From Naegleria gruberi (Eukaryota): a stretch of DNA of 64,000 bases. Under the pieces are notes generated by a model, which searched no databases, was not told where the DNA came from, and saw only the letters and a list, made by a program, of their open reading frames with translations. Made by a program: the position numbers and the translations under genes. Every line of letters begins with the position of its first letter. The stretch's first letter is position 1. Location: assembly GCA_000004985.1 (NCBI GenBank), contig GG738871.1; one strand, given 5' to 3'. Positions 4,436 to 49,401 of the stretch are shown here, in pieces.

Positions 4436-5605
4436 ATGGCATTCGAAGATTTAACCACAATCGTTTTGGATGTTGGTTCATTTCGTGTTAGAGCAGGAAT
4501 TGCAGGAGATGATGAGCCAAAAATTAATATTCCAACTCTTGCATCTCGGAATCCAAAATTTAAATCTACAAAATCTACAAATTTGGAATCCAAATTGACG
4601 AATAATGAACAAGATGATGCTGATACTTATTTGAAAAGGGAATATTTAATTGGATCGGAAATAATTGATTATGAAATAATGAATAATGATGGGAAATTAG
4701 AAATCACAAGTCCATTTGGTGATGGAAAGGAAATTAATGTTGATGTAATGGAAAGGATTTGGAGATTTACATTTGAACAATTAAAAGTTGAGCCAGAGGA
4801 GTGTCCATTAGTGATGATTGAACATGCATTGACTGAAAAGAGAGTTAGAGAGACAAAGATGCAAATCATGTTTGAGTCATTTGGGATTCCAATGTATTAT
4901 TCTGGATATGATTCAGTGATGAGTATGTATGCGAGTGGTAGAGTGACAGGAATTACAGTGAATATGGGATATGAGGAAACTCAAATTGTTCCAGTTTTTG
5001 AAGGATTTGCATTACCTCATGCAATAATGACAATGAATTTTGGAGGACGACAATTGACTGAATACTTAGCTCAAAAATTGAAATTGGATGGGCATAATTT
5101 AACTAATGATCAAGTGAGTCAATTGAAAGAGAAATTGTGTCGTGTAGCTGAGGATTATGATGAAGAATTGAGAACAATAGACAGTGCATCTTTTGAACTA
5201 CCTGATGGAAATGTTATTCAAATTAAGAATGAACGATTGACATGTCCAGAAATTTACTTTAACCCACAAATTTTTCAATCCCAAGAAATTGGTCCAATAC
5301 ACCTTCAAACCTATTCTTCAATTCAGAAGTGTGACATTGATGGAAGAAGATTTTGGTACTCGAACATTCTCCTCACAGGAGCTAGCTCATGTTTCCCTAA
5401 AATGACAGAGAGATTAACCAAGGAAATGGTCTTCTTGTCACCTTCCTCAATGAAAGTCAAGGTGATTGGTGCACCAGAGAGAAATATTCAGGCATGGTTG
5501 GGAGGCTCTATATTGGGATCCATTTCCGCCTCTCAAACGATGTTCATCACACGAGAGGAGTATGAAGAAGTTGGTCCAGTTCTTGTTCATAGGAGGTGTT
5601 TCTAA
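4436..5605 (+). CDS. actin-related protein (divergent actin fold, 389 aa)
   Basis: N-terminus LDVGSFRVRAGIAGDDEPK aligns with actin DNGSGMCKAGFAGDDAPR; C-terminus ..APERNIQAWLGGSILGSISASQTMFITREEYEEVGPVLVHRRCF-stop matches actin ..[44 protein letters not shown]-stop. Confidence 0.8.
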   Translation: MAFEDLTTIVLDVGSFRVRAGIAGDDEPKINIPTLASRNPKFKSTKSTNLESKLTNNEQDDADTYLKREYLIGSEIIDYEIMNNDGKLEITSPFGDGKEINVDVMERIWRFTFEQLKVEPEECPLVMIEHALTEKRVRETKMQIMFESFGIPMYYSGYDSVMSMYASGRVTGITVNMGYEETQIVPVFEGFALPHAIMTMNFGGRQLTEYLAQKLKLDGHNLTNDQVSQLKEKLCRVAEDYDEELRTIDSASFELPDGNVIQIKNERLTCPEIYFNPQIFQSQEIGPIHLQTYSSIQKCDIDGRRFWYSNILLTGASSCFPKMTERLTKEMVFLSPSSMKVKVIGAPERNIQAWLGGSILGSISASQTMFITREEYEEVGPVLVHRRCF

Positions 5606-11235: not shown

Positions 11236-12894
11236 TTAAAAATAGGCTGTTTCATTTTCCAAGCCAGTGACTGTCTGAATATCACCACCTTCAGTCTTGT
11301 AGACAAGCATGAAACTCTTGAGAACATTTGGCCAAGTATCTCCAAAATTAGAATTGGTGACATGAATAGAACCAGTGTTGGCCAATTGTCTAGCTCTTTG
11401 AGTCAAATCTTGAGTTCCATAAGTAAAGCAAATAATCTTTTCTGGGGAGTGGACATAGCCAAGGTGCTTCTTTGATGACACATTAACATGTTGACCCTCT
11501 TGACATGTAACAAGATAATAATCACTTTCACTCTTCAAAACCATTGAGAAGGACTTTGGCCAACCAGGTAAACTATCTTCAAAGTTATGGTTATTGGCTC
11601 CAATATTAAAATTATTTCCACCACTTAAATCTTTTGAGTCCTCAGTTACATCCACAGGTCCATAAGCAGCTGCAAGAATGGACAGATTAGATGAATCAAC
11701 TGGAGCAACAGGTTGAGTAGTTGGTTTTGATTGTGGTGGACCATTGACATTCACAACACATTCTTTTTGATACAAGTGATGATTAAGAATAATCTTGATA
11801 CTATCATCGTGCCACATTGCTCCCTTTTCAGTAGTGGATGGACAAAATACTTGAGAATTTCCTGGTTCCTTAACACAAAAGAAGAGATTGAAATTGTCAA
11901 ATCCTCTTGCCATTATACCAGTTGAAGTGTGATCACAACCAAAACAATGACCCAATTCGTGCATTGAAGCACCAATACCAGTAGCACAGTTGGCATAATA
12001 AGTTCCACGACCAGCACTGTCATCTCTCAAATGTGACTTATCGACAGAAGTGTCATTCATAAAGGAAGCTTGGATCTTATCAACAGAATTAGGATATGAG
12101 TACATATTGACATCAGCCCACATTGCCAAATATCCCCCACCCAAGGCGGCTCCCAATTTAGTCTTATTCAATACAGGATCATAATAATGTCCACTAGTTA
12201 TACAATAATAAACAGTTTGTGGAGTGTGTTTTGAGCTATTGACCAATTGATTATGAATATGGCTATATGCAGCATTACCACCATCATTCATCCAATCATT
12301 ACTCAAACTGGCAAATTCCTCTCTCGTATACTTTTCAGAGTAAACAACATCAATGAGTGGCATATTCTTGTGGTGAGGATCAACTTCTAATGGGAATGTT
12401 CTTCTACCGTCCTGAACCTTCTCAGCACAGAATGTTTGCATCATCAACAAGGCTACTTGCATTCTCTTAATAGCCTCACTTGAATCATTCTTTTCGTGTG
12501 GCATATTTCTGAAAGAACCATCATGATCCTTGCAAACAAACCAAATTCCCTTAACCTTTGAACCACTTCCTGAACCAGCTACATTGATCATATTCGGATC
12601 ATAATTAACCTTAAAGTGCAAATCAGAGTCCTTTCCCGATTGACTCGAGAGGTGAATATTATTCTCTCCTTCCTCCAACAAGACGAGAGCCTTGAAAAAA
12701 GTTTCATAGATAGGGAATTGATATTGTGTTCTCTTTCCGGTCATGGCAGAGACACAACTCACAAATAAAACCTCACCGACATCACCCTTTGATGATGGAC
12801 ACTGACCAAATAACCTGATCAAGCTGTAGCCGAGAGAAGAACCACTCTCATGATTATGAACAATGATTTGAGGCATTATTTTTGTTAAGTTCAT
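11236..12894 (-). CDS. metzincin zinc metallopeptidase, M43 (pappalysin/ulilysin/cytophagalysin)-like
   Basis: HELGHCFGCDHTSTGIMARGF = HExxHxxGxxH zinc site followed by Met-turn; HE(I/L)GHx(L/F)GxxHT pattern typical of M43. Confidence 0.5.
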   Translation of the reverse strand: MNLTKIMPQIIVHNHESGSSLGYSLIRLFGQCPSSKGDVGEVLFVSCVSAMTGKRTQYQFPIYETFFKALVLLEEGENNIHLSSQSGKDSDLHFKVNYDPNMINVAGSGSGSKVKGIWFVCKDHDGSFRNMPHEKNDSSEAIKRMQVALLMMQTFCAEKVQDGRRTFPLEVDPHHKNMPLIDVVYSEKYTREEFASLSNDWMNDGGNAAYSHIHNQLVNSSKHTPQTVYYCITSGHYYDPVLNKTKLGAALGGGYLAMWADVNMYSYPNSVDKIQASFMNDTSVDKSHLRDDSAGRGTYYANCATGIGASMHELGHCFGCDHTSTGIMARGFDNFNLFFCVKEPGNSQVFCPSTTEKGAMWHDDSIKIILNHHLYQKECVVNVNGPPQSKPTTQPVAPVDSSNLSILAAAYGPVDVTEDSKDLSGGNNFNIGANNHNFEDSLPGWPKSFSMVLKSESDYYLVTCQEGQHVNVSSKKHLGYVHSPEKIICFTYGTQDLTQRARQLANTGSIHVTNSNFGDTWPNVLKSFMLVYKTEGGDIQTVTGLENETAYF

Positions 12895-13032
12895 TTCTTT
12901 CCCGCCATTATTTACAAGGAGAGTAGTTCAATGGTTCGTAAACCTAACCATACCACAAGAATCTTGTAAATATTAGTATTGTACATTACTATTATAATAA
13001 ATTAAAGTTGTATTAATATTTTGTCATGTCAA

Positions 13033-16000
13033 CTAATAGTAGGAATGAATGGAGAGGCGAGAAGGTTTTTTATCGTTACCATCCTCATTTGAACTTGTAT
13101 CAGAATTTGTACTCGATTCCTCCTCAAGGCAATAAGGTGTGTCTCTATAGAGTAAACTTGATTGATTCGGATAGGTTGGATGATAAGGTCCATATTTCAC
13201 AGACCAAGTGTAAAAGTCAATAATTTCATGATCATTGACGTGATATTCAGCACAATTAGTCTTGAAACAGAGGAAAATTCTAAAGGCATGTTCAATGGCT
13301 GCACTAACAGATGGAGAATAGGTTTCGAACCAAACAGGGTCTCTTCTTTTTGCTCTTCCCCATGATTGATAATCATTGATGAGTATGTACTTTGTAACGG
13401 TATCATCCTTTTTAGAGTAACTATCATGAGAGGAACCCTCAGATGATCTATCCTCAAAGGTTGATTTCATCCAAACGATTGAAATATTGCTTTTGTAAAT
13501 TATTTGATCTAGGTTTGGTTTAGAGTAGGCAATTTGATAGAAATTATCGTGTACAGGATGGAAACTCCCAATTGGAGTTTGTGATCCGGGTTCTACTGTA
13601 ATAAATTCAATATAGCTTGGAACATGAATGCAAGGAGGCTCTTTTTCATAATGGAAATTAGTTTTAATATCGTTAAATGTGCAAATAAAGAAGTGTCTCT
13701 TTTCATAGGAATAGGTCAATAACCCATTATACACTGTTCTAGCTTTCTGAATACTATCATATATTTTCCTATTACAAGTGTTAACCAATTTTTCTGTTAA
13801 CAATAAAACTTACTTTGGAGGATATCTGTTTGTTTTGATAAGTGCAATATTGAAATAATCAGAAGGTCTAGTATCCTCATCAAATACTAAATCTTTTGCC
13901 CATTTTTCTTCTGCAAGATGAGCATTTACTCCTTCTGGAGAATCATGGCTAGCAAGAATGTGCTTTGGATTTTTAGAGGTACATGCAAATTCAAACATTA
14001 GTAATCGAGCAAGTCCATGGACATGTTTTTGAATTTTTGCAAATGTATGAACTCTTGGATAGTGCAACAATTCGTTCTTAACTTTGCTATGGTGATATCC
14101 AGGCACAGAAACAGCAAATCCACGTTTGGCATACTTATAGAGTCTGTATTCATAGGTAGTAGATTGTCTATCGATATCCACCAAGTTGACACCATGAGCC
14201 AAGGATCTTCTACATCTATCAGTTGACCAAACAGTGTTTCCATCAAAACCAACAGAAGCAGAATCAATATCAAAAGAGAGCAACACTTCAGCAGGGGACT
14301 TGTAAATTCTCAATACTACTTGTATTGGTCTAGTTTTGTAACCGTAGAAAGTAACTGCATGCTTGGTTCTCATTATAATTACATCGTCATCCACCACCTC
14401 ATGTACTTCTGTTGATTTTTTTTCAGAACTGCTTGTAAAATAAAGATAATTACTGTCACTGCCTGGACCCAAATCACGAACAAGTCTCTTTTTCAAATTT
14501 CCCTTAATAGTGTTGTAGATGTGCTCGATTTTTTCCTTTGCTTCTTCCTCGTCGACTGCATACAGAAACAAGTCAATGTCTGATTTTTGAAAACTGGAAG
14601 GAATATCAGGATCTGGAATATACTTTGCTTGACTCTTATCTATACTTTCTATTGGTTCTGGTGGAGAAATATTTGATTGTTTCGAAGTTTGATTAGCTTT
14701 CTTTCCACTAATATTGTGTTTTCGTTTCTCGTTTGCATCAGCAATTTTTTTCCTTATCCATTCAAGACCGCTAAATCTCTGCAAATGAGATCCTAAAACT
14801 CCACACCCATTTGAAATGGACGAAAATTGATGGTATTGACTTTGTACAACTGTGTTTGCTTTGTTGGTACTTGTTTTCCAATATTTGAAATCACTTTCAT
14901 CCAAATCGAACGATAAGGTCTTCCTCTCCAAAATAGATGTTGTGCTATAATGCTCAGTCGAGGAAGCGGCTGGCATATATTCAGTCATGATAGTCGTCCT
15001 TTCAGTATCGTTTTCATCTCCTTTGAAAAGACAGCCCAAGACACCTCCACCAGCAGCAAAAATTCCATTCCAATCTAAACCTTCGAGAAGACCATGAGTA
15101 AAGTTGTACCAATTCTTCTTGAAAGTTTCCAAACTATTCACTAGTTTTGGTTTTTCAACATGTCTTGAATATTTCAACTTGTTTGACAAATCCAAAATCT
15201 TGGGACATTTCACATAGTCAATCTTGAATTTCTCTCCAGAGTGAATCTCATCCAACTTTTCGAAAACAGGTGATAGAGTCAAGTACATGTCATCTAGTAA
15301 TGGGGAATCTCTATGTTTAACATAGAACTTTCTTAGCCAATCATCCCTTTCCTTCATTTGAATATTTTCGCTGGAGAGCAATTCGATTGGATATCTCAAT
15401 CCATCCAAGTATTCATCTAGAAGCGTGTTCAAACCATAAAATTCTGCCTCCTTCTTGAATTGAAGTCTCTTTGCATCTGACATGGTAGCAGGAAAATGAT
15501 TAAACTTTCTATTACAAATCAAATAGCTATAAATTAAAGAAAATAATTCTGGATTTCTGTCAATAAATAAGTACCCATCGAGACCAACTCGAAAATTTGG
15601 AGATTGAATATATTTGGTCACAATAAAGTCGTCATGTTGAGCCAAAACTCTGAATGGAATGATAAACTTTTGACCTGATACGTTCAACTTGACTACCAAA
15701 TCTGCACTCTCAAAAAACTCGTCTTTCCTATTGTTATCAAGCAAAAAGTCCTGGTATTTTTTGGAAATTTCAGAACTCAATTGTTTGATAATTTGCTCCT
15801 TCTGTCTCGATTCTTCTTCAATCAGTTGCATATCCTTTTCAATAGATAGAATGGGTGGCTGTGATTTCATTGTAGCATTATTTTCACATTCCAAAACTTC
15901 AGAATTGTGATAGGTCCTCATTAGTAATTGAATATGATGTGAAAGTTTTTCAGTTTTGAAAAATTTTGACTCCTCCATAATACATTTCAACAAGTTTAAA

Positions 16001-16611
16001 TTAAACTTTTCAATACCAAGACATTTCACCTTCCCTGCCATTCTCAAATGTTCCAAAACAAACTCAAAACCTATTGGATTTCTATCTATAAATTGAGTGT
16101 TAACACTCTCTTCAGTGCCATCATATAATTTCAATTGATCTTTCATGGATTGAAATAAATTGTCTCCTGCCTTTACATATAAAAAGCTGTCAGCATCACA
16201 CATTGTGACTAGTCCCATCTCTTTGGTAAGTTCCTGTCTTATAGTTGAATCTTCATCGGTCAGTCGGTCACGATTTGAAATTTTGGTATCAACAGGAATC
16301 TTTCCAAAAGTAGCCTCTCCCATCAATGTTCCTCTGGTAGTATAGAATAATTTATCTTGAATTTTAATTACCACTACATAATTTTGCATACGTCCCACAA
16401 CTTGACAAGTCTTATCTTCTGATGATGAAGCATTGATGAGAAGATTTTTGGTATTTTCTAATTGATCTCGGAGTGAAAGATTAGCATGAAATTGATCAAT
16501 CAGAGCCTCATCCATTTGATGATGACCATGATCGTGCTCTGTACTTTGTGATGAGAGAACATTATTTAAATCCCTCTTCAGAGAAGATGAGGAAACTTCA
16601 TGTTGACTCAT
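13033..16611 (-). CDS. BTB/T1 (KCTD-type) domain protein with C-terminal WWE-like domain, ~1177 aa; two exons (13814..16611 and 13033..13768) joined by 45-nt intron 13769..13813
   Basis: T1/BTB_2 match VKLNVSGQKFIIPF...LFIDRNPELFSLIYSYLICNRKF...KKEAEFYGLNTLL. The 933-aa ORF and the 256-aa ORF are in the same frame separated by one TAA; the downstream ORF has no ATG in its first 111 codons. GTAAGT(donor, overlapping the TAA)...AATAG 45-nt intron restores ..NRYPPK|KIYDSIQKA... C-terminal segment SWGRAKRRDPVWFETYSPSVSAAIEHAF...IIDFYTWSVKY...LLYR resembles the WWE consensus. Confidence 0.5.
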
Positions 16612-16811: not shown

Positions 16812-17834
16812 ATGGACGAAAATACTAACAAACAAATTAATGATGATGAAGAGAGAATGGAAATAGGCAAAGTTTCTCTTGTTATTAATAATACGAAAGG
16901 AAATTCACCCTTCTCTGACGATGTAATTGGTGAAATTCTATCTTTTCATGATGATTTTATATTTGTAGTGATGAAATGTGCACTAGTTTCGAAACAGTGG
17001 CTGAATATAATTATGGAAAGGAGTAAATTGTCACTAACATGTAACCATAGTAAAATGAAGGGTAGATTTCTACCAAATATTGTAACTCTAGAATGGACAT
17101 GTAGTAGATATCAAAAGTTTACATTTGATAGTGGAATATTTGGTACTATGAAACAATTAACCAAACTAAAAATTGGTGAAAATAATATTGGTGATCAGAA
17201 CGCCAAATGTTTCATTGAAATGAAACAATTAACCAGTCTTGATGTTTATCACAACAATATTTCTAAGGAAGGAGCCAAGTTTATTGGTGAAATGACACAA
17301 TTAACCTATCTCAATGTTAATACTAATAATGTTGGTGAACTGGGAGCCAAATATATCAGTAAGCTCAACCAATTAATCACACTCAATATTGGACTCAATT
17401 CTATTGGTGAACAAGGAGCCGAATATATTAGTGAAATGAAACAATTAACTGACCTAAATATTTATAGTTGTAACATTGGTAATCGAGGAGCCAATCATAT
17501 AAGTAGAATGAAACAATTAATCTCACTTAATACTGGTCGTAATGGTCTTGACGATGAAGGAGTCAAATATATTAGTGAATTGAATCAATTAAATTTTCTT
17601 AATATTGCAGACAGTAATATTAGTGAAGAAGGTTTAAACTACATTAGTGGGATGAAACAAATAATTCATCTAGATATTAGTAACAACTTTATTGATGATG
17701 AAGGAGCCGAAATCATTAGTAGAATGAAACAATTAACACGACTTGACATTAGTAACAATAGCATAGGTGAAGAAGGCACCAAATATATCAGTGAAATGAA
17801 AAAATTGACATATCTTGATATTGGTGAATTTTAA
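16812..17834 (+). CDS. F-box-like / leucine-rich repeat (RNI-like) protein
   Basis: N-terminal F-box-like IGEILSFHDDFIFVVMKCALVSKQWLNII, then ~24-aa repeats N.IG..GAKYISEMKQLT.L.I. The LRR pattern continues in a +1 frame for ~20 codons past the stop (NFNICLQGMEYLTELKQSTM), so the 3' end may carry a frameshift. Confidence 0.55.
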   Translation: MDENTNKQINDDEERMEIGKVSLVINNTKGNSPFSDDVIGEILSFHDDFIFVVMKCALVSKQWLNIIMERSKLSLTCNHSKMKGRFLPNIVTLEWTCSRYQKFTFDSGIFGTMKQLTKLKIGENNIGDQNAKCFIEMKQLTSLDVYHNNISKEGAKFIGEMTQLTYLNVNTNNVGELGAKYISKLNQLITLNIGLNSIGEQGAEYISEMKQLTDLNIYSCNIGNRGANHISRMKQLISLNTGRNGLDDEGVKYISELNQLNFLNIADSNISEEGLNYISGMKQIIHLDISNNFIDDEGAEIISRMKQLTRLDISNNSIGEEGTKYISEMKKLTYLDIGEF

Positions 17835-20345: not shown

Positions 20346-21473
20346 TTAAGGTTTATTTTCTTCTCTTAGTGTCAATAGACAATCAACAACCCAAGAATCG
20401 ACAACTTTCACCCGTTCATCACTTGATTGTGATAGACTATCCTCTTCACTCGACGATACTACAGTTGATGATGAAGCAGAAGAGGAAACAGTTGTATAGC
20501 TGGAGAACATTGATGCATTCGATGAGGAACTGGCAATTGAATTCTTTCTGAGACGTTTTGTGTCTGGGAAATTATTGGAGGTTGGTCTCTTCTTATTCTC
20601 ACTGTTCGGTAACAACCTTCTTCTAGCATTGATAAACCAATAGTTGATTCGTTTTTGACTTAGACCAGTTTGATTTTGAATTTGTATCTTTTCCTCTTCT
20701 GTTGGATATGGATTTTCTTTGTGGGAAAATAACCATTCTTTCATTATGGAAACAGCTTGTTTAGGGAGGTTTCTATTGGAGGTTGTTCGAAATGGATTGG
20801 CTTCTTCTTCTTCTTGTGGGTTTTCCATAACAATGGCTGAGTTTGAGGAGGATTCTTGGGCTTGTTTCTTGTTCTTTCTCCTAATAGAAGTATCGATCAG
20901 TGGTGCTTGAATAGTATGAACAGTAGAAGTGGATGTATTCGAAATAGAATTGCTTTGTACTCTTGAATTATTTACAATTAATGGCGTTCTAAAATCACAA
21001 GATGAAGAACCAACATTTGAAACTTGAAAAGTATTCTCAATAGAAGCAGAACAACCAACAGATGTTGGTTTTAATTTCTTGTTGGTTGACAAGTCCATAT
21101 TTACAAATGTCAAATGATTAGGAATGCATGATTGAGTTGTTTTCTTTTGATTTGGTGGATTCTCATACATTGCATTATATTTTGAAGGTTGAAAGGTAGG
21201 AACTGGAGTTGTTGAGGAAGGAAACAAATTGGTTGGATTGACTTGATGAAAAACAAATGACGTTTTAATAGGAGGAGAAATGTTTCTCGATACATGAGTA
21301 ATAGCTTGGGAATTATTCGAATGTGAAGGTGGAAACAATGGAACGAATGGTACAGGTTTTGGAGGACAACAATATTGTGTCAACGTTTGAATTGGAGGTA
21401 AACGAGTTGTGATTGCCTCGTTGTTGGTTGACAGGGTTGGCAGTTGATTGAAAGGGATGAGGTTTTGTGGCAT
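20346..21473 (-). CDS. TALE-class homeodomain transcription factor
   Basis: [53 protein letters not shown]: three-residue loop extension (PYP) and WFINARRR helix-3. Confidence 0.75.
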
Positions 21474-21695: not shown

Positions 21696-23372
21696 TCAGT
21701 GTAATGTATCAAGCTTTTTGAGAGAATGCTCTGATGTAACTTCTCGTTCTATTTGTGACATCTGCCGTCTTGCCTTTAGTGCCTTTTCTAAATTGAGAGA
21801 AACCTGTGGTCCCCTCATTTTAATAATCTTATTCCAGACACCACTTGGTACTTTACCTCCAATATCAATAAATGATATTGTTGTCATTTTGGTTTGTTTC
21901 TCATTCAATTGTTCAATGAAAATGGCGCCGAAAAAGTATCCTCTGATGCATCCTTTCTTTACAGGTGTACTGGGCTCGTAGGATTTTCTGAGAACTGAAT
22001 AATTTGTCATTTGATTGGTCACTTGATTTGGTTCTCTTCTGACACTGGTACAAGCATAGATTTCTCTATCATCGAGAGGCCACGGAGTCTTAACAACAGT
22101 GGATGAACAACTGATAGGGTAGGTCTTGATTTGATTTCCCAGGGAATCAAAAGTTGTACTCTCCTCAATAAATTCAATGAATTTTGTGTGAGTTACATTC
22201 GGTTCTGAGAATTTAGTTAATCTCGAATCAATGAATGCATAGAGAATTTCCTCTGGTAAATCATCCACAATGCAAACTTCCTTAACAATGCTCAATCCTC
22301 CTTTGGATTTACTCTTTAACTTGCCCTTGGATACGAGTTTTTCCTTACTGATATAACTGGTCACATTCTTTGAATCGTAAATTTCCTTCCAAATATCCAT
22401 CTCCGAAAGAGTTTTGAAAAGGTTATAGTATTGATCAGTGATAATCTTTGAATCCTTTTCCAATAACAAGTTGGTGAGAGCTTCCTTCATTTCCACCTTT
22501 TTATGTTTTGTAGACATGTCGGAAGCAGTTGATTCAGTATCTACTTCGGAATCTGACAGATTTCCTGACCTAGAAGAATTGGCAGGACTATTACTCGATT
22601 GCTGAGCATTGGATTGTCTTCTTTCTCCAAAATAGATCAAATTATTGTCCAAAGTTTTCATAAACTCTTGTACATAGTCTTGACTCAATTGATTTGATTT
22701 GTTTGTCATTGGAATGGTAATTTCTTTTGAAACTAGTGAAAAGAGACAACCTGTGAAGAAGCTACTCGACAAGAATCTTGAAAAGTTGTCATTTCTCAAT
22801 TCCATATGTACAATACGTCTACAATTATCAAAAAGGTCTATATCAATATCTGAATTTTCATCATACTTTTCAAATCTATTTATCACATCATTTCTAACAT
22901 TATCTGTAAGGTTAAGTTGGTCTGATGACATATCCTCGAGGAATCTCTTGATGATTCCTGAAGCCTTGTGATATCTACTTCCTTTTTCATTGACAAAATC
23001 ATCATAGGCAATAATAAAATCCAAACTACTCAAATTATGTTCAAATATCAAGAATTGTCTAAAGGCAGGCAAAATTGCCAACTCGTCCGTTAAACAAGCT
23101 TCAAAATTAATAGTATATTGTATGACAACATCTTCTATCAATCTCATCAATAAACTCTCCACTGTTTGATTAGCATTTGTTGGTGTATTCAGAATGGTAT
23201 GAACATGATTATTATAGAGTGCCGTTTGCATTAGTGGAGAAGATGAAGAGGGTGAAATAGGAGAAGCGAGAGGAGAGGTTGAGTATTTCTTTCGAGAAGG
23301 TGATAGTGGAGAGGTTGGAGAAGTTGGTGTGGAAAGGGTGAGCGAGCTTGTACTCAGGGATTGTTGTTTCAT
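21696..23372 (-). CDS. RGS-domain protein with C-terminal START-like lipid-binding region
   Basis: RGS-like helices (AFRQFLIFEHNLSSLDFIIAYDDF ... FDNCRRIVHMELRNDNFSRFLSS); C-terminus ..TTISFIDIGGKVPSGVWNKIIKMRG.. resembles START domain C-terminal strand/helix. Confidence 0.45.
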   Translation of the reverse strand: MKQQSLSTSSLTLSTPTSPTSPLSPSRKKYSTSPLASPISPSSSSPLMQTALYNNHVHTILNTPTNANQTVESLLMRLIEDVVIQYTINFEACLTDELAILPAFRQFLIFEHNLSSLDFIIAYDDFVNEKGSRYHKASGIIKRFLEDMSSDQLNLTDNVRNDVINRFEKYDENSDIDIDLFDNCRRIVHMELRNDNFSRFLSSSFFTGCLFSLVSKEITIPMTNKSNQLSQDYVQEFMKTLDNNLIYFGERRQSNAQQSSNSPANSSRSGNLSDSEVDTESTASDMSTKHKKVEMKEALTNLLLEKDSKIITDQYYNLFKTLSEMDIWKEIYDSKNVTSYISKEKLVSKGKLKSKSKGGLSIVKEVCIVDDLPEEILYAFIDSRLTKFSEPNVTHTKFIEFIEESTTFDSLGNQIKTYPISCSSTVVKTPWPLDDREIYACTSVRREPNQVTNQMTNYSVLRKSYEPSTPVKKGCIRGYFFGAIFIEQLNEKQTKMTTISFIDIGGKVPSGVWNKIIKMRGPQVSLNLEKALKARRQMSQIEREVTSEHSLKKLDTLH

Positions 23373-30054: not shown

Positions 30055-32165
30055 ATGCCTCAAAAACAACATCAAGGCGCCAACTACAACAACAACAATA
30101 CAATAATGAGGAGTTGTTTGTCGAATCGGAGAGGAATTGTTTTACTTGCTTTTTTAGTGATGGTGTTCATGATGAGTACATCAGCAACAGTAGCAGCCAT
30201 TCCTTCATCACCATCGGCAGCATCGGATGTTCTTCTTTATACAACACTGGAGGCTGAGTCACCAAATAATACAAATCCTAACGATCACAATACAATAGAT
30301 CCATCATATAATTATCCTATTTGGATTCCTTGGGCTATTTGTGGAGTATTATTCTTTGTTATTTTCATCATTACTTCAATTGCTGTTTGTTTATTTCAAG
30401 ATAGGAGAGAAAAGAGTTTTATTGCTTTGGTTACTTCAATTGTGGGAATTTCTCTGGTTGTATTTTCAATCTTTGTTGTTCCTGTTGATATCTTTAATGT
30501 TTCTCAAACTTTTGATCCAAAGGAAAATTCCCTCGTCATTAAGATTCTCTATTATAGTATTTATTTAATATTATTGATTTTTGGCTCTGTCATTATTCCA
30601 TTTGCTTATTTCTGGTATGAAGAAGATCCAAAATTAGGAGAGAATGAAGATGATGATGACAAGTATTCTCTATCTTCAAAGAAACAACAACCATCAAGAG
30701 CAAGTGGATTGGGATGGAGATTGTTTCACACTATCAAATTTACACTCTTTACATTCATTGCAGGTATTTTGATTATCATTATGGGTCTTGTCATGTCTGC
30801 TATTAGTGGAACTGTTGCTGATAAGAATAGTGTTACTGATTGGTTGAAACAATTGGTAGATGTCGAACATTTTGGAGATAGAGCTATTAGATTCATTGTT
30901 GGTTGTTTGGCTGTTGTGGGTTGTTTTGGATTCAATATTTATACAGCCTATGGTCTCTCTGCTTTACCAATTGGATTAATGAAGAGAAAATATCTCACCT
31001 ACAAGGATGAAAATGTTGTGGATAGAAGGGCTGATGAAGTTGATGAAGAAATTGACCTCCTTCAAAAGAAATATAGAATGAAGGGAACTTCCATGAATAG
31101 AGAAGATCAAAAGAAGTATGACAGACTCAGACAAGAAAAGACAGAACTCGAAAATACCTCAATTAGAATTGAAAGATCCAAGAAGAGTATCATTGCCAAG
31201 TTGGAACCATGCATGTATCCATTTAAATTATTGATTGGATTTGGTATTTTGGTGGTATGTATTAATTTTTATTGAATGTTTTTTTAATGATTTATTGAAT
31301 TAATTGTTTTATATTGTAATCAAAACAGGTAATCATTTTCCTTCTAATTTCTCTACTCATCAACTTGATTTATAGAACTGTTACCAGCAAGTGTGGTATT
31401 GCTTGTGGATTTGTCACTGAAGAAAATTGTTATTTCAATCCTTTGGATTTATTGCTCACCTACAGTTCCATTATTTTCCCAATTGACTATATTATTTTAG
31501 CTTTAATTATTTGCTTATTTATTTGGGCAAGTATGGTTTCACTTTCAACTATTGGATTGAGATTCTTGTGTGTTAAATTATACAAGTTAAAGGTCAGATC
31601 AACTGTTCCACAAGGTTTATTAACTTCTGGAATTTTCCTCATGTTTATCATGTTGGCAACCTCCTTCATGTTACCAAGTTTTGCTCCAGTCTATACTACC
31701 TTTGGTTCACAAAAATATCAAGATTCAACTGGAGCTTGGAAGCAATGTGCATTGGCTGCCTTCAACTTTACAGAACATAGTAATAATTCTCACTCCTTAT
31801 TTAATCATCCTGAAATTCCATCTCTATTTGGCGATTTGGATGGAAATTACACTAACGGAAATAACACTAACACCACAAGACCTTGTTACATGACAGAACT
31901 ATCTCAGAATGTTAACAGCGTGACAATTGGTGTTCCTGTTTTCAGTATTATTTTCTACTTTGAAAATTGGTTATTTGTACTGTGCTTTATTATTGGGTTC
32001 ATTGTTTCAATTTTCAAAAAGCCGGCATCATTTGAAGAAGCAGATACTTATGATCATGATGAGGAAATTATGAAACGACCACTCAGGGGAAGGTCCTACA
32101 AAGAGTATGCCACATCTTCAACACGATCAAGTATGTCTTTAAACTCTTACAATGCCATCAACTAA
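30055..32165 (+). CDS. LMBR1-like multi-pass membrane protein, 2 exons (30055..31254, 31329..32165)
   Basis: Multiple TM helices, PFAYFWYEEDP motif after a TM, central coiled-coil loop (KYLTYKDENVV...LLQKKYRMKG), more TMs after 74-nt intron GTATGT..AACAG 31255..31328 that joins the two ORFs in frame. Confidence 0.5.
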
Positions 32166-36508: not shown

Positions 36509-38725
36509 ATGAGTATAGAAATTAAAGTAAAACCCAAGATGAGTCATCAACAATCCAAACAGCATGATGAAATTGTCAATGATCATAAGGCTCACAATCA
36601 GAAGAATCATCATCAGAGACCTTCTGTTCTCTTGTCGTGGCACAATTTAGAGTTTAAAGTAAAGGTGGCTGCTAGTCAGGCTTCAAGAAGAATTGCACCA
36701 TCAAGTTCGGAAGAGCAATTGAATGGAGAATCACAACAAGAAAATGCATCATCACAAAAATCTTGGAATCCTGTCAATTACTTTAAACAGAAAATAGCAA
36801 AGGTTGAGAAACAAGTATTGCAACCAATGACTGGTTTTGTAGAGCCAGGCACAGTTTTGGCAATAATGGGCCCTAGGTAAGTTTTTGCATCTTGTTTATT
36901 TACAGTTGAATGCGGTTCAAATTTTTCAATCTACAATTTGATTCAGTGGTTCTGGCAAGACAAGTTTTCTCAATTTGCTAGCTCAAAGAGTTAAACCAAG
37001 TGGAGGAACAATTAAAATCAATGGAGAAAATGTATCAAATCATATGAGCTCATTCATGGCATGCAGTGCATTTGTGGAGCAGGATGATGTCTTGATGGGT
37101 TCACTCACGGTCAGAGAAACATTGAGATATGCGGCCTTATTGAAAATGCCATCAAGTAAATATACAATGAGAGAAAAGATGGAACGAGTTGACCATTTGT
37201 TGAAAGAATTGGGATTGGAAAAGAGTGCAGATACAATTGTAGGAGTTCCCGGACTTTCGAAAGGTATTTCAGGAGGTGAAAGAAAAAGACTCAGCATTGC
37301 TGTGGAAATTATCAATGATCCAGCTGTATTATTTTTGGATGGTAAGTGGTTTTATCTTTATATGTAAATTAATCATTCTTTGAATTTGTTTTGATATTAT
37401 TATCATTAGAGGTAACAACTGGATTGGATGCAAGAACAAGTTTAAATGTAATTCAAACAATTATGAAATTGGCAAGAAAGGGAACAACTATTGTATTAAC
37501 AATTCACCAACCTCGTTCAGATATTTTCCAAATGTTTGATAGGCTTATTCTTCTTGCACAGGGAAGAATTGCTTATTTTGGAGATGGTCAGCATGTTTCA
37601 CATTATTTTGAAAAACTTGGCTATCAATGTCCAGAAGACTACAATATTGCAGATTATTGTATCGATCTGATTAGTGAAAATCCGTCCTACACCAGTGATA
37701 ATCCAAAGAAGAAACTAGACGAAGCAAGAAGAATTACCTCAATATTGGATCACTATGAAAAACACACTTCACAATCAATGAAGACGCCAAAATACGATTC
37801 AGAAAGTCAAACAGATTTCAAAGCTTTGAAACTCACTAGAAACAATGCCTTCTCACAATTTATCATTCTATGTCTGAGAGGGTTACTTAATACTGTAAGA
37901 AATAAGCAATTAACAACTGTGAAAGTTTTCCAACAAATAGTAATGGCATTACTGGTTGGTTTGATTTTTATTCGATTGGGACATACCCAAACAGATGTAC
38001 AAAATAGAATTGGAGCATTATTTTTCATAATGGTAAGTTTTTGAACCCAATTTTAAATTATATTGATTTCATAATAGACCAATCAAATCATGTCTCCACT
38101 CTTTGGATCAGTTTCAAGTTTTCACAATGATAGACCTGTTTTATTCAGAGAAAGAGGGGCGAACCTTTACAATATTGGCAGTTTTTACTTTTCCAATCTG
38201 GTTGTTCAAATGCCTTTATCAATGTTTTTCCCAATATTCTTTGGATCAATGGTGTATTATTTAGTAGGTCTAAATGAAAATGTAGAACGATTCTTCATGT
38301 TTATACTCATACTGATAGTGGTAGCCATCTCTGCCAGTAGTATGGGTTCTCTGTTTGCAGTGCTGAGCCCATCGTTTGGTGTGGCCATGTCAGTCATTCC
38401 TCTCATCACAACCATGTTGATGCTCTTTGGAGGATTCTACAGAAATGTCTCAAATATTCCACCTTACTTTATTTGGATTTACTGGATATCGGTATACCAC
38501 TTTGGGTTTGAGGCATTAGTTCACAATGAGTTAGTTGGAGCTGTCTTTGAATGCCCTACATCCTTCTGTGCCTCACCAACTGGAGAAGCAGTTATTGAGG
38601 TTTTGGAAATGAATGGTCCTCTCTCCAACATTTGGATCAACTTGGGTTTCATGTTGGCTGTGGCACTCATTTGTCAAATTATCAGTTTTATTGTGTTGGC
38701 ACTTTTCGTCAAACCAAAACGATAA
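36509..38725 (+). CDS. ABCG (white/brown-type) half-transporter, 4 exons (36509..36876, 36947..37341, 37410..38032, 38078..38725), 677 aa
   Basis: Walker A GPSGSGKT is reconstituted across intron 1 (70 nt). ABC signature LSGGERKRLSIA. Walker B LFLD|E spans intron 2 (68 nt). Intron 3 is 45 nt with an in-frame stop. C-terminal 6-TM domain. NBD-then-TMD order as in ABCG. Total 2034 nt = 678 codons. Confidence 0.75.
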
Positions 38726-47031: not shown

Positions 47032-49401
47032 TTGGCCTTTCTTAATTCTCCCAAACTCCAACAACCAGTAAGCAACTTGCTAACCGTAGAACCTCATATA
47101 CTGTGCCACAAACAATTTGTTATCCTCCAAAAATCCGCAGGAACCGTAAACAGCTATCTTGAACATTCTAACTTGCCGTTTTTAGCCATGGTATTGTTTG
47201 ATGAATTTTCAAATTTTCATAACAGCAGAAAAAAACCTCAAAAGACAGCACGCACCAAGGTTGTTGTCTTCTCTCATAGAATCAACAAGAACAAGAACAT
47301 GATGCAACAACCTATTAGGAGTATGGTGATGAATAGCAGCCTCAAGATGAAGCTAGGACTTGTTTTAATTCTCTCCATCCTCTTCTTCTCATGTTCTCTT
47401 CATAACATGGTAACATGCTCAAATAGTAATCAGGATTTTAAAAACATGAATCATCAACCAATTATTGATAATATAATCGCGAATAGTGCTATTGAACAAC
47501 AACAACAACATGAACAAATATCAACCAATAGCAGATCATTAATAGATTTAAAGGGATTATTGAAGAAAACTAAGGGACTTTTAAGACTTCCATCAAAGAA
47601 ACACTTTCTCACAATAGATTTCAAGTTGCATTCAAGATCCAATGTCATTGTTAATTCAAATGCTAGTGATAAGAAGGAACCACTCTATAGAGGAAGAGCT
47701 TTATTGAACTATCAGGGAAGTAACAATAGATTGAGACTTGTTTCGACCTCTTCTTTGCTAAAAAAGACAATTTATTATGATTCAGACAAGATGTCATATA
47801 CTGATCATGATTTGTCTGGAGAAAGAGAAGATGTAATTGTTCCAACAAGTGAAGTGCCATTCCACAAGTTTTTCCAAGCTTTACATGATGAAATGATGAG
47901 TGGAATTGCTCATTCCAATTATATTCCTGCAAAAGTTCCAATTTATGATGAAGCAATTGAGAGATTGTGTCCAAATTTTAGAAATTCAAGACATTTAGTT
48001 TATTTTGGAGAGCAATATTATGTTTTTTGTATTGGAAGGGAAAGTGTTTCACATAAGAATGAGGACGAAACACTCAATGCAAATCTTTTGCTTACCAAGT
48101 TTATTATAGCTCAGGAATTTATTGTGGAAATTTCAAATATTCACTCAAGTCTACTTCCATTAGATTTCAATCTCAGTAAAATGATTAGAGGAATTTTCAC
48201 ACAACAAAACGAAGAGGAAAACTTTAATTTGTTCGTGGAATCTCCAACCATTCAAGAAGAATTGAGAAAATTCGATTTGAAATACAGAAAGAAGAGTCAG
48301 TCAGGTTTGAAAGACTTATTCCCAAAGGAAAGAGCTATTTTCTCGGAGAGAAGTTATACTCCAGATCCAGATCCAACTCATTCCCACTTTTTCAGTTCTG
48401 TCAGCTGTAAGATTCCATATCTTCGTGGTAAATTATGTAAGGAAACTGACAGTTTGGTAGCTAAGGATGACAGGAAGATTTGTTTCTTTTTACATGGAGC
48501 TGGTCAATGGTATGTTTTTGTTCATTTCACATTCATGTTCTAATTAACATCATGTCAATTTCTATATTCTGTTTTTCAAAACTAAATTAGGCCATCTGAT
48601 AAGGGAGAACCAACTAGAAAAGATTATACAGATTATTGGGGTCCAATGTCTGATTACACACCTCAATGCTCTGAAAGATGGTACATTAGAGAGGAAACCA
48701 AATACAGAGGATGGGACAATCGTGAACTTCAACAAAGTTTTTGTGATTTCCTCCTCTTGAAACATCTCCCACAACTGGCCAATAGCACTGCTGACAGAAC
48801 TGTCAAGAATGCCATCATTTATGCTCATTCAATGGGTAATTTAATTCTTGCAGGAGCCATCAAGAATGGAATTTGTAATTTGGAAAAGGAAACCATCTCC
48901 TGGTACAATATTCAGGGACCAATGAAGGGAAGTAAGGCAGCTCACATGTTACAAGATTTGTGTGCCAATAGAGTTTCAGTGCTTACCCCTGGAATTGCCA
49001 AGACCATTGCTGCTAAGGGTGGTTACTGTCTCTCTAAGGAAAGTGAAACTCTATTCCCAACCTATGAATCCTTAAAGATTGATTATCCAGGAATTGATCA
49101 ATTGGGTGAAATTGCTGCTCCATATATTAAGGGACACATGTGTGGTACGAGCCCATCTGGATTGAATACAATCTATGCTCCTGCTCTTTCATTCCTGAGT
49201 AATTTGGTCAAGTATGGAGAAGCAAATGATGGAATGGTTACAATTAGTTCATGTCGATTGGCTCCTTTGGAATCATTCACTTCAAATCACTATACTCAGA
49301 ATTATATGGTTGAAGCAAATCATGCTGATGGTACATGTCAATCTGGTGATGCTTGGTTTGGTTCTGTAAAGCCATGTTCATATTATCTTTTGAAGAAATA
49401 A
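47032..49401 (+). CDS. secreted alpha/beta-hydrolase (lipase-like), 2 exons (47032 or 47299..48509, 48591..49401)
   Basis: Hydrophobic signal/anchor MKLGLVLILSILFFSCSL sits ~100 aa into the ORF, so ATG 47299 is the more likely start. FFLHGAGQW oxyanion-type motif and GxSxG nucleophile elbow IYAHSMGNLI. 81-nt intron (TG|GTATGT...AATTAG|G) restores the W codon. Confidence 0.5.

Follow-up and report, generated by a model that had tools for sequence, protein, structure and literature searches.

A two-exon Naegleria gruberi gene predicted to combine tandem BTB_2 domains, a Gad2-type nucleotidyltransferase module and a divergent WWE-like domain

The 64,000-nucleotide (nt) stretch of Naegleria gruberi contig GG738871.1 (assembly GCA_000004985.1) analysed here, referred to as the window, contains the gene NAEGRDRAFT_79929 on its minus strand. 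The full coding region (13033..16611) comprises two exons and specifies a protein of 1177 amino acids (aa). Exon 1 (13814..16611, minus) opens with the ATG at 16611, gives an N-terminus that agrees with the public gene model, and includes codons 1-932 plus two bases of codon 933; exon 2 (13033..13768, minus) completes codon 933 with one base, continues with codons 934-1177 and ends in the stop TAG at 13033..13035. Between them lies a 45-nt, phase 2 spliceosomal intron (13769..13813, minus) of the form GTAAGT…AATAG, with a G+C content of 24%, against 35% in the coding sequence. The order along the protein is two BTB_2 domains joined by a coiled coil, a nucleotidyltransferase module, a low-complexity linker and a divergent WWE domain. 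As an explanation of the locus as a whole, we consider it likely that this is one gene with two exons, encoding a BTB-oligomerised enzyme with a Gad2-type catalytic module.

In the list of open reading frames (ORFs) the gene was represented by two entries on the minus strand, an upstream ORF of 933 codons (16611..13810) with an ATG start, and a downstream ORF of 256 codons (13803..13033), located 7 bases further on, whose listed start is TTG. Both are in one frame, and their sole separator is a TAA at 13810..13812 that overlaps the donor site; the GTAAGT donor happens to create this in-frame TAA, hence the two ORFs in the track. The downstream ORF has no ATG in its first 111 codons, and codon 112 is the first for Met. 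The junction reads CCA AA/GTAAGTTTTATTGTTAACAGAAAAATTGGTTAACACTTGTAATAG/G AAA (slashes mark the exon boundaries), the exon join gives ..NRYPPK/KIYDS.., and removal of the intron leaves a 3534-nt reading frame of 1177 codons. The downstream frame contains a single stop, versus 34 and 6 in the remaining two frames. An earlier note on this DNA had reported the positions of both ORFs, their shared frame and lone TAA, the lack of an ATG for 111 codons, and a frame-preserving 45-nt element with a canonical GTAAGT donor and AATAG acceptor; all of these features were confirmed in the ORF listing and in the sequence at 13769..13813.

The GTAAGT hexamer is under-represented in the 64-kb window, with 10 occurrences per strand versus about 22 expected from base composition, which makes its presence exactly at the ORF break more telling. 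Three other introns that join adjacent ORFs were found on the plus strand. One of them, in an ABCG-like transporter gene (38033..38077), has the form GTAAGTTTT…ATAATAG and is also 45 nt long, an equality already pointed out in the earlier note; the others (31255..31328 and 48510..48590) are 74 and 81 nt long, with GTATGT…CAG/TAG ends. In donor, acceptor and length, the NAEGRDRAFT_79929 intron is like the other introns of the window.

The spliced 1177-aa product was identical, residue for residue, to a public "predicted protein" (EFC43851.1 / XP_002676595.1 / UniProt D2VH97, D2VH97_NAEGR), which is placed, as XP_002676595.1, on a 417,575-bp scaffold. The public protein collection that holds the spliced form lacks the 933-aa product of the unspliced frame. 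The intron and the fused 1177-aa protein are already known, in GenBank since the N. gruberi genome annotation of 2010, so that the intron was not hidden in the sense in which it had been announced.

Comparison with relatives provided independent views of the same junction. The segment ..KTNRYPPK/KIYDSIQKAR.. aligned without gaps to ..KSDRYPPSYLFDQLSKVH.. in five homologues, namely N. lovaniensis P0001 (45% identity), N. fowleri P0002, the N. fowleri paralogues P0004 and P0005, and the metagenomic P0003, which is encoded by one uninterrupted, intron-less ORF of 1158 aa. L002, a metagenomic contig whose source strain is about 98.7% identical, spans 15578..12132 of the window, and differs from it by 14 substitutions in 1765 nt of exon 1 and 11 substitutions in 736 nt of exon 2, without indels in either. 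Eight inserted bases were found, all inside the element, which is 53 nt long in L002, and none in the 2501 nt of exon; the donor and acceptor are unchanged, and other indels occur only past the stop codon. With an element of 53 nt the two ORFs of L002 are in different frames, so that splicing alone can join them. A fourth argument for splicing is that the last conserved nucleotidyltransferase motif lies in exon 2, and the 933-aa ORF by itself would leave a conserved module incomplete. Identity to the public model, gap-free homologues and the indel pattern of L002 together identify the 45-nt element as a real spliceosomal GT-AG intron, and the fusion of the two ORFs proposed in the earlier note stands.

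The N. fowleri orthologue (L003:1501-5698, VFQX01000027.1) has two introns elsewhere, just past the AAGGG motif (~aa 612) and within ITVDPG/TQAIGSF (~aa 1137), and none at the RYPP position. Since these sites differ, the intron position in NAEGRDRAFT_79929 is not conserved within the genus and has no bearing on the splicing question. Directly after the N. gruberi intron position (alignment columns ~1222-1295), P0001-P0003 carry a basic insert of ~70 residues that is absent from N. gruberi, P0004 and P0005; since exon 2 is uninterrupted in N. gruberi, no exon has been overlooked and the proteins truly differ in length. On L002 a prokaryote-style caller broke the gene at the intron and reported two pieces, of 588 and 257 aa (L002:3-1769 and 1781-2554); the 257-aa piece (P0007, TTG start) represents the 90%-identity cluster to which the real N. 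gruberi protein belongs.

The best-conserved part of the protein is its central region, which the earlier note had left as 600 unassigned residues. It maps to 13816..15399 in exon 1 (minus, residues 405-932) and to 13516..13767 in exon 2 (minus, residues 934-1017), and is identified as a nucleotidyltransferase domain of the Gad2 family (PF26128), with a predicted DNA polymerase β (pol-β) fold, by the PF26128 matches of its homologues, its motifs and a Gad2 profile. Precomputed PF26128 matches were found in all the close homologues (P0001-P0005) and in 60 of 62 wider matches, and the N. gruberi protein was assigned via these homologues. The pol-β signature hG[GS]…[DE]h[DE]h…h[DE]h is intact, as AGG (520-522), D678-I-D680 and F-D781-I, conserved in 56-66 of 67 members. 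Its hG[GS] element is the AAGGGV motif (15040..15057, minus, residues 519-524), with A/G/G in 56-59 of the 67. The DxD carboxylates D678 and D680 lie in SDIDLF (14566..14583, minus, residues 677-682; 65/67 members). SFDIDS (14260..14277, minus) contributes the third carboxylate, D781, kept in 66 of 67, and also D783. Other conserved positions are Q764, R768, Y770, E775, FDID (780-783) and DG (790-791), followed by a further run of R/N/S/YE/R/KY/RG residues as far as 831. The exon 2 part contains the motif PxxQxxxGSFxP…[WF]…Y (EPGSQTPIGSFHPVHDNFYQIAY, residues 992-1014), in which 50-55 of 67 members, from diverse eukaryotes, share P993, Q996, G1000, S1001, F1002, P1004 and Y1014; AlphaFold2 (AF2) gave residues 930-1000 a predicted local distance difference test (pLDDT) score of 64-94.

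Between the G-G and DxD motifs lies a disordered low-complexity insert of ~125 residues (14626..15000, minus, residues 538-662; pLDDT <50), flanked by structure with pLDDT >90. Relatives have a ~20-residue loop at this site, and the Naegleria-type homologues all have long inserts of differing sequence.

A profile of the central region matched 5803 representative clusters (50% identity) at an expectation value (E) of <=1e-3, 707 of them at E<=1e-30, among 1.84 billion representatives. Named matches include Acrasis kona, Pelomyxa schiedti ("ankyrin repeat protein"), the chytrids Gonapodya and Blyttiomyces, Aureococcus and many protist transcriptomes. Searched as a profile against PDB sequences, the central region had no match, and a PHROGs scan returned nothing meaningful. 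When residues 405-1017 were modelled separately for Foldseek, the predicted fold was similar to solved nucleotidyltransferase members of the pol-β fold, and among the viral models of BFVD the module matched Fadolivirus, Pithovirus-like, Bodo saltans virus, Megavirus, Hokovirus and Pandoravirus proteins, with E down to 6.6e-23. Giant-virus proteins with this module are usually annotated just as 'ankyrin repeat', 'BTB' or 'VWFA'.

The founding member of the family is Gad2 of Bacillus phage SPbetaL7 (WIT28108.1; OQ921347.1, 109563..110765), a predicted nucleotidyltransferase (bioRxiv 10.1101/2023.05.01.538930) that, like its prophage homologues, carries the PF26128 accession. A 26-sequence Gad2 profile aligned with the eukaryotic profile over 142 columns at E 7.8e-6 (probability 84%) with the catalytic motifs (AGG, DxD and FD) and KY..G[FY] in register, while the single Gad2 sequence reached E 0.011. 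The AGG aligns with its phage counterpart, SDIDLF aligns with the phage NDIDVYF (D45, D47) and the third carboxylate with FDFTVC (D106); D45, D47 and D106 are invariant in the alignment of Gad2 homologues. Both proteins share one order of elements, AGG, [SN]D[IV]D, Q-[IV]-[IV], FD.x.C, FD and R[LV]xKYxxxG[FY], and on these alignments the kinship of the eukaryotic module to phage Gad2 is judged real but remote. Gad2 differs in that it consists of a single domain of 400 aa, comes from phages or prophages of Bacillota and blocks Gabija; BTB, WWE and the C-terminal GSFxP motif are absent from it. A eukaryotic nuclear gene encodes the N. gruberi protein, which has no Gabija system to inhibit, so the founder's anti-Gabija function is not transferable to it.

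Class-II CCA-adding enzymes, bacterial poly(A) polymerases and TENT5/FAM46 have only 10-17% sequence identity to the module and differ in domain context, and nothing here points to tRNA or mRNA 3'-end specificity. The giant-virus and protist proteins named 'ankyrin repeat', 'BTB domain-containing' or 'VWFA' share both the module and its motifs, but their partners vary (Ank, TPR, zf-MYND, VWFA). Among the 67 members, BTB_2 is the commonest partner (17), followed by ankyrin (4), WWE (3), TPR (2) and zf-MYND (1); the combination of two BTB_2 domains with WWE was seen mainly in Naegleria-type sequences.

The N-terminal part of the protein matched Pfam BTB_2 (PF02214) in two stretches, with E 1.6e-13 and 51.3 bits against a gathering cut-off of 21.4, which agrees with the T1/BTB_2 domain that had been recognised in the earlier note. 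The stronger stretch is the second BTB_2 domain (15418..15693, minus, residues 307-398; FIDRNPELFSLIYSYL … EAEFYGL), for which Foldseek found the T1 domains of KCTD16 and KCTD5 with probability 1.0 and a target-normalised template-modelling score (TM-score) of 0.67-0.75, at pLDDT ~90. The first BTB_2 domain, of T1/KCTD type (15916..16380, minus, residues ~78-232), contains a disordered loop (101-147) and has AF2 pLDDT 80-94 outside it; its residues 142-232 matched the KCTD9 BTB weakly (E 0.097), and the region is kept in all homologues. The full-length AlphaFold model, built from a 67-sequence alignment, has a mean pLDDT of 68, and its Foldseek search against the PDB returned BTB matches only, the BTB domain dominating the search. 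Like KCTD5, KCTD16, KCTD9 and SHKBP1, the protein has a BTB_2 domain above the Pfam threshold that superposes on the T1 of KCTD16/KCTD5; it differs from them in having BTB_2 twice in tandem and then an enzyme module where they have the KCTD C-terminal domain. Many T1/KCTD BTB domains merely oligomerise, without Cul3 binding, and KCTD16, the top structural match, is one that we take to be a non-binder of Cul3. The structural neighbours also include KCTD5, for which a Cul3 complex has been solved (8u81).

The C-terminal domain (13138..13380, minus, residues ~1063-1143; SWGRAKRRDPVWFETYSPSVSAAIEHAF…EIIDFYTW…LLYRD) was proposed in the earlier note to be WWE-like. This was sustained in part: Pfam gave the protein no match, and homology to paralogues with recognisable WWE domains, together with the signature residues, supported it. 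In the paralogues, Pfam WWE matches at the aligned position were significant for P0004 (E 1.9e-10) and P0005 (E 8e-10) and borderline for P0016 (E 4.3e-4), and hhalign of the N. gruberi orthologue group against the group of these three paralogues gave a probability of 96.5% (E 7.7e-10). Other members with the same architecture, P0011 and P0012 (~1e-10) and P0020, also have significant Pfam WWE matches, and the P0004 domain matched the WWE of DTX1 at E 6e-4. A six-sequence profile of the C-terminus itself got no further than E 0.12-0.73 with the WWE domains of TRIP12, DTX1 and PARP11. SWG, VWFETY and AIEHAF supply the Trp-Trp-Glu triad, in register with TRIP12 and DTX1, and the model has the expected β-α-β4 pattern (pLDDT 76-92). 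These comparisons indicate that the domain is a WWE by descent.

In all solved WWE-ligand complexes, a conserved Gln makes a double hydrogen bond to the adenine of ADP-ribose (ADPr), iso-ADPr or ATP (PMC11269756). The corresponding position is Val in N. gruberi (IDFYTWSVKY, versus IDFNSMQQIN in TRIP12), His in P0001-P0003 and Gln in P0004 and P0005, and retained binding of ADP-ribose-type ligands is doubtful. Compared with the WWE domains of RNF146, TRIP12, DTX1, PARP11 and ZAP, the N. gruberi domain has in common the triad, the order of secondary structure elements and homology to paralogues with significant WWE matches, but it falls below the Pfam threshold, lacks the adenine Gln, and is fused to a nucleotidyltransferase instead of the E3 ligase or PARP domain of known WWE proteins.

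Directly downstream of the gene for P0003 (975-4451) on the metagenomic contig L001 (ENA ERZ929261), a gene for a Tse2-like ADP-ribosyltransferase was found (4783-5244; PF18648, E 7e-25). That a producer of ADP-ribose is encoded beside a WWE-bearing protein could be meaningful or a coincidence; in the N. gruberi window no gene of this kind lies next to NAEGRDRAFT_79929. The genes flanking NAEGRDRAFT_79929 encode a putative metallopeptidase (PF12044; 11236..12894, minus), a leucine-rich-repeat protein (16812..17834, plus), a TALE/KN homeobox protein (20346..21473, minus) and a protein with RGS and START-like domains (21696..23372, minus) identical to XP_002676597.1; none of the four has an evident functional tie to NAEGRDRAFT_79929.

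The combination of domains leads to a proposal of how the protein could work. By analogy with T1/KCTD domains, the BTB_2 domains would oligomerise the protein. The central module may then transfer a nucleotide to an RNA 3' end or another acceptor, as its closest folds would suggest; alternatively, its output could be a nucleotide-derived product. By binding a nucleotide-like ligand or a partner, the WWE-like domain could regulate the enzyme or target it to a location. The arrangement of two BTB_2 domains, nucleotidyltransferase and WWE recurs in P0004, P0005, P0011, P0012 and P0020. The BTB-WWE fusion of the earlier note had been thought undescribed, a view that does not hold, because N. fowleri paralogues already carry Pfam annotation for BTB_2, Gad2 and WWE.

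Several observations weigh against this interpretation. To our knowledge, no biochemical function has been established for any member of the family. The Gad2 alignment is limited to the N-terminal ~150 residues of Gad2, which makes the link a remote one; tblastn of the nucleotidyltransferase core against phage genomes gave no match, and scanning the central alignment over IMG/VR viral contigs gave no confirmed relative. At E<=10, Pfam WWE (PF02825) matched neither the complete sequence nor its last 244 aa nor the 90-aa core, and with Val at the adenine-Gln site and a sub-threshold Pfam result the domain may not bind nucleotides at all. As to the gene itself, the substitutions between L002 and the window are 8 synonymous and 17 non-synonymous, giving no clear signal of purifying selection at 1.3% divergence, and the exact spliced junction, scanned in metagenome contigs as a proxy for transcripts, had no match. 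The mechanism of Gad2 was still listed as unknown in 2026 (PMC12904381).

Other readings of the locus differ either in what the protein does or in what is translated. The protein could be a non-enzymatic Cul3 substrate adaptor, in which the BTB domain recruits Cul3 and the WWE domain reads poly(ADP-ribose) (PAR), making a PAR-dependent ubiquitin ligase adaptor. The BTB_2 domain is present and resembles that of KCTD5 in the solved Cul3 complex, the C-terminus is homologous to true WWE domains, and PAR, ADPr or ATP are ligands of the WWE domains found in E3 ligases (PMC11269756). This reading, however, ignores the largest and best-conserved module, a predicted nucleotidyltransferase with intact catalytic residues, and relies on a WWE-like domain with no Pfam match and Val in place of the adenine Gln. 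Moreover, oligomerisation without Cul3 binding is common among T1/KCTD BTB domains, and it is KCTD16 that the structural search ranked first here. We regard such an adaptor as unlikely, and the plain PAR-linked Cul3 adaptor of the earlier note gives way to a protein that looks like an enzyme; the two roles are nevertheless compatible, since by analogy the BTB domain could still bind Cul3. An inactive central domain, a pseudo-enzyme acting as scaffold only, would be compatible with the ~125 disordered residues between the G-G and DxD motifs and with the lack, as far as we know, of a known activity in any family member. We consider it improbable, because the three carboxylates and the G-G are kept here and in at least 56 of 67 relatives, and because relatives have shorter loops at the insert site, whose flanking structure is modelled at pLDDT >90.

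The remaining alternatives concern the TAA. Intron retention is the common mode of alternative splicing in protists, and a regulated form of it here would yield a 933-aa isoform without the last nucleotidyltransferase motif and the WWE domain, and both isoforms could have a function. The shortness of the intron, its length in whole codons and the stop at its first codon would suit such a mechanism; yet the intron is 53 nt long in the sister strain, and so unconstrained in length, and the truncated product would cut a conserved module, which makes regulated retention very improbable. That translation really ends at the TAA, with a complete protein of 933 aa and with 13033..13803 as a gene of its own or a decaying remnant, is scarcely credible. 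It would account for the two ORFs in the track and for their separation by a prokaryote-style caller on L002, but the downstream ORF has no ATG for 111 codons and holds a conserved family motif and the WWE-like domain, collinear with full-length homologues; the public collection has the spliced form and not the 933-aa sequence, and between-strain indels within the gene are confined to the 45-nt element. The comparative data already contradict this reading as two separate genes, and readthrough of the stop codon was likewise rejected, being impossible in L002, where the element measures 53 nt.

Literature searches on PF26128, and on BTB, WWE and nucleotidyltransferase together with Naegleria, returned nothing relevant, and no paper was found that describes a eukaryotic Gad2-like family or a BTB-nucleotidyltransferase-WWE architecture. 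The "hidden intron" is in itself ordinary; as a worked example, it shows how an ORF track breaks a eukaryotic gene in two when a short intron has a length divisible by three and contains a stop in frame, an error that the metagenomic caller made likewise. What retains interest is the very large eukaryotic and giant-virus Gad2-like family and the recurrent fusion of its module with BTB and WWE domains in Naegleria. We tentatively suggest, as one possibility and not the most probable outcome, that the module defines a large enzyme family (at least 5800 clusters at 50% identity) of protists and giant viruses that shares ancestry with a phage anti-defence protein, and that in Naegleria was placed on BTB oligomers and coupled to a WWE-type sensor of nucleotides or ADP-ribose, as an enzyme of eukaryotic nucleotide signalling or of host-virus conflict. 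The ADP-ribosyltransferase gene beside the orthologue on L001 would fit the ADP-ribose link of such a role. The chemistry of the module, if established, would annotate thousands of proteins together, and might clarify how Gad2 defeats Gabija.

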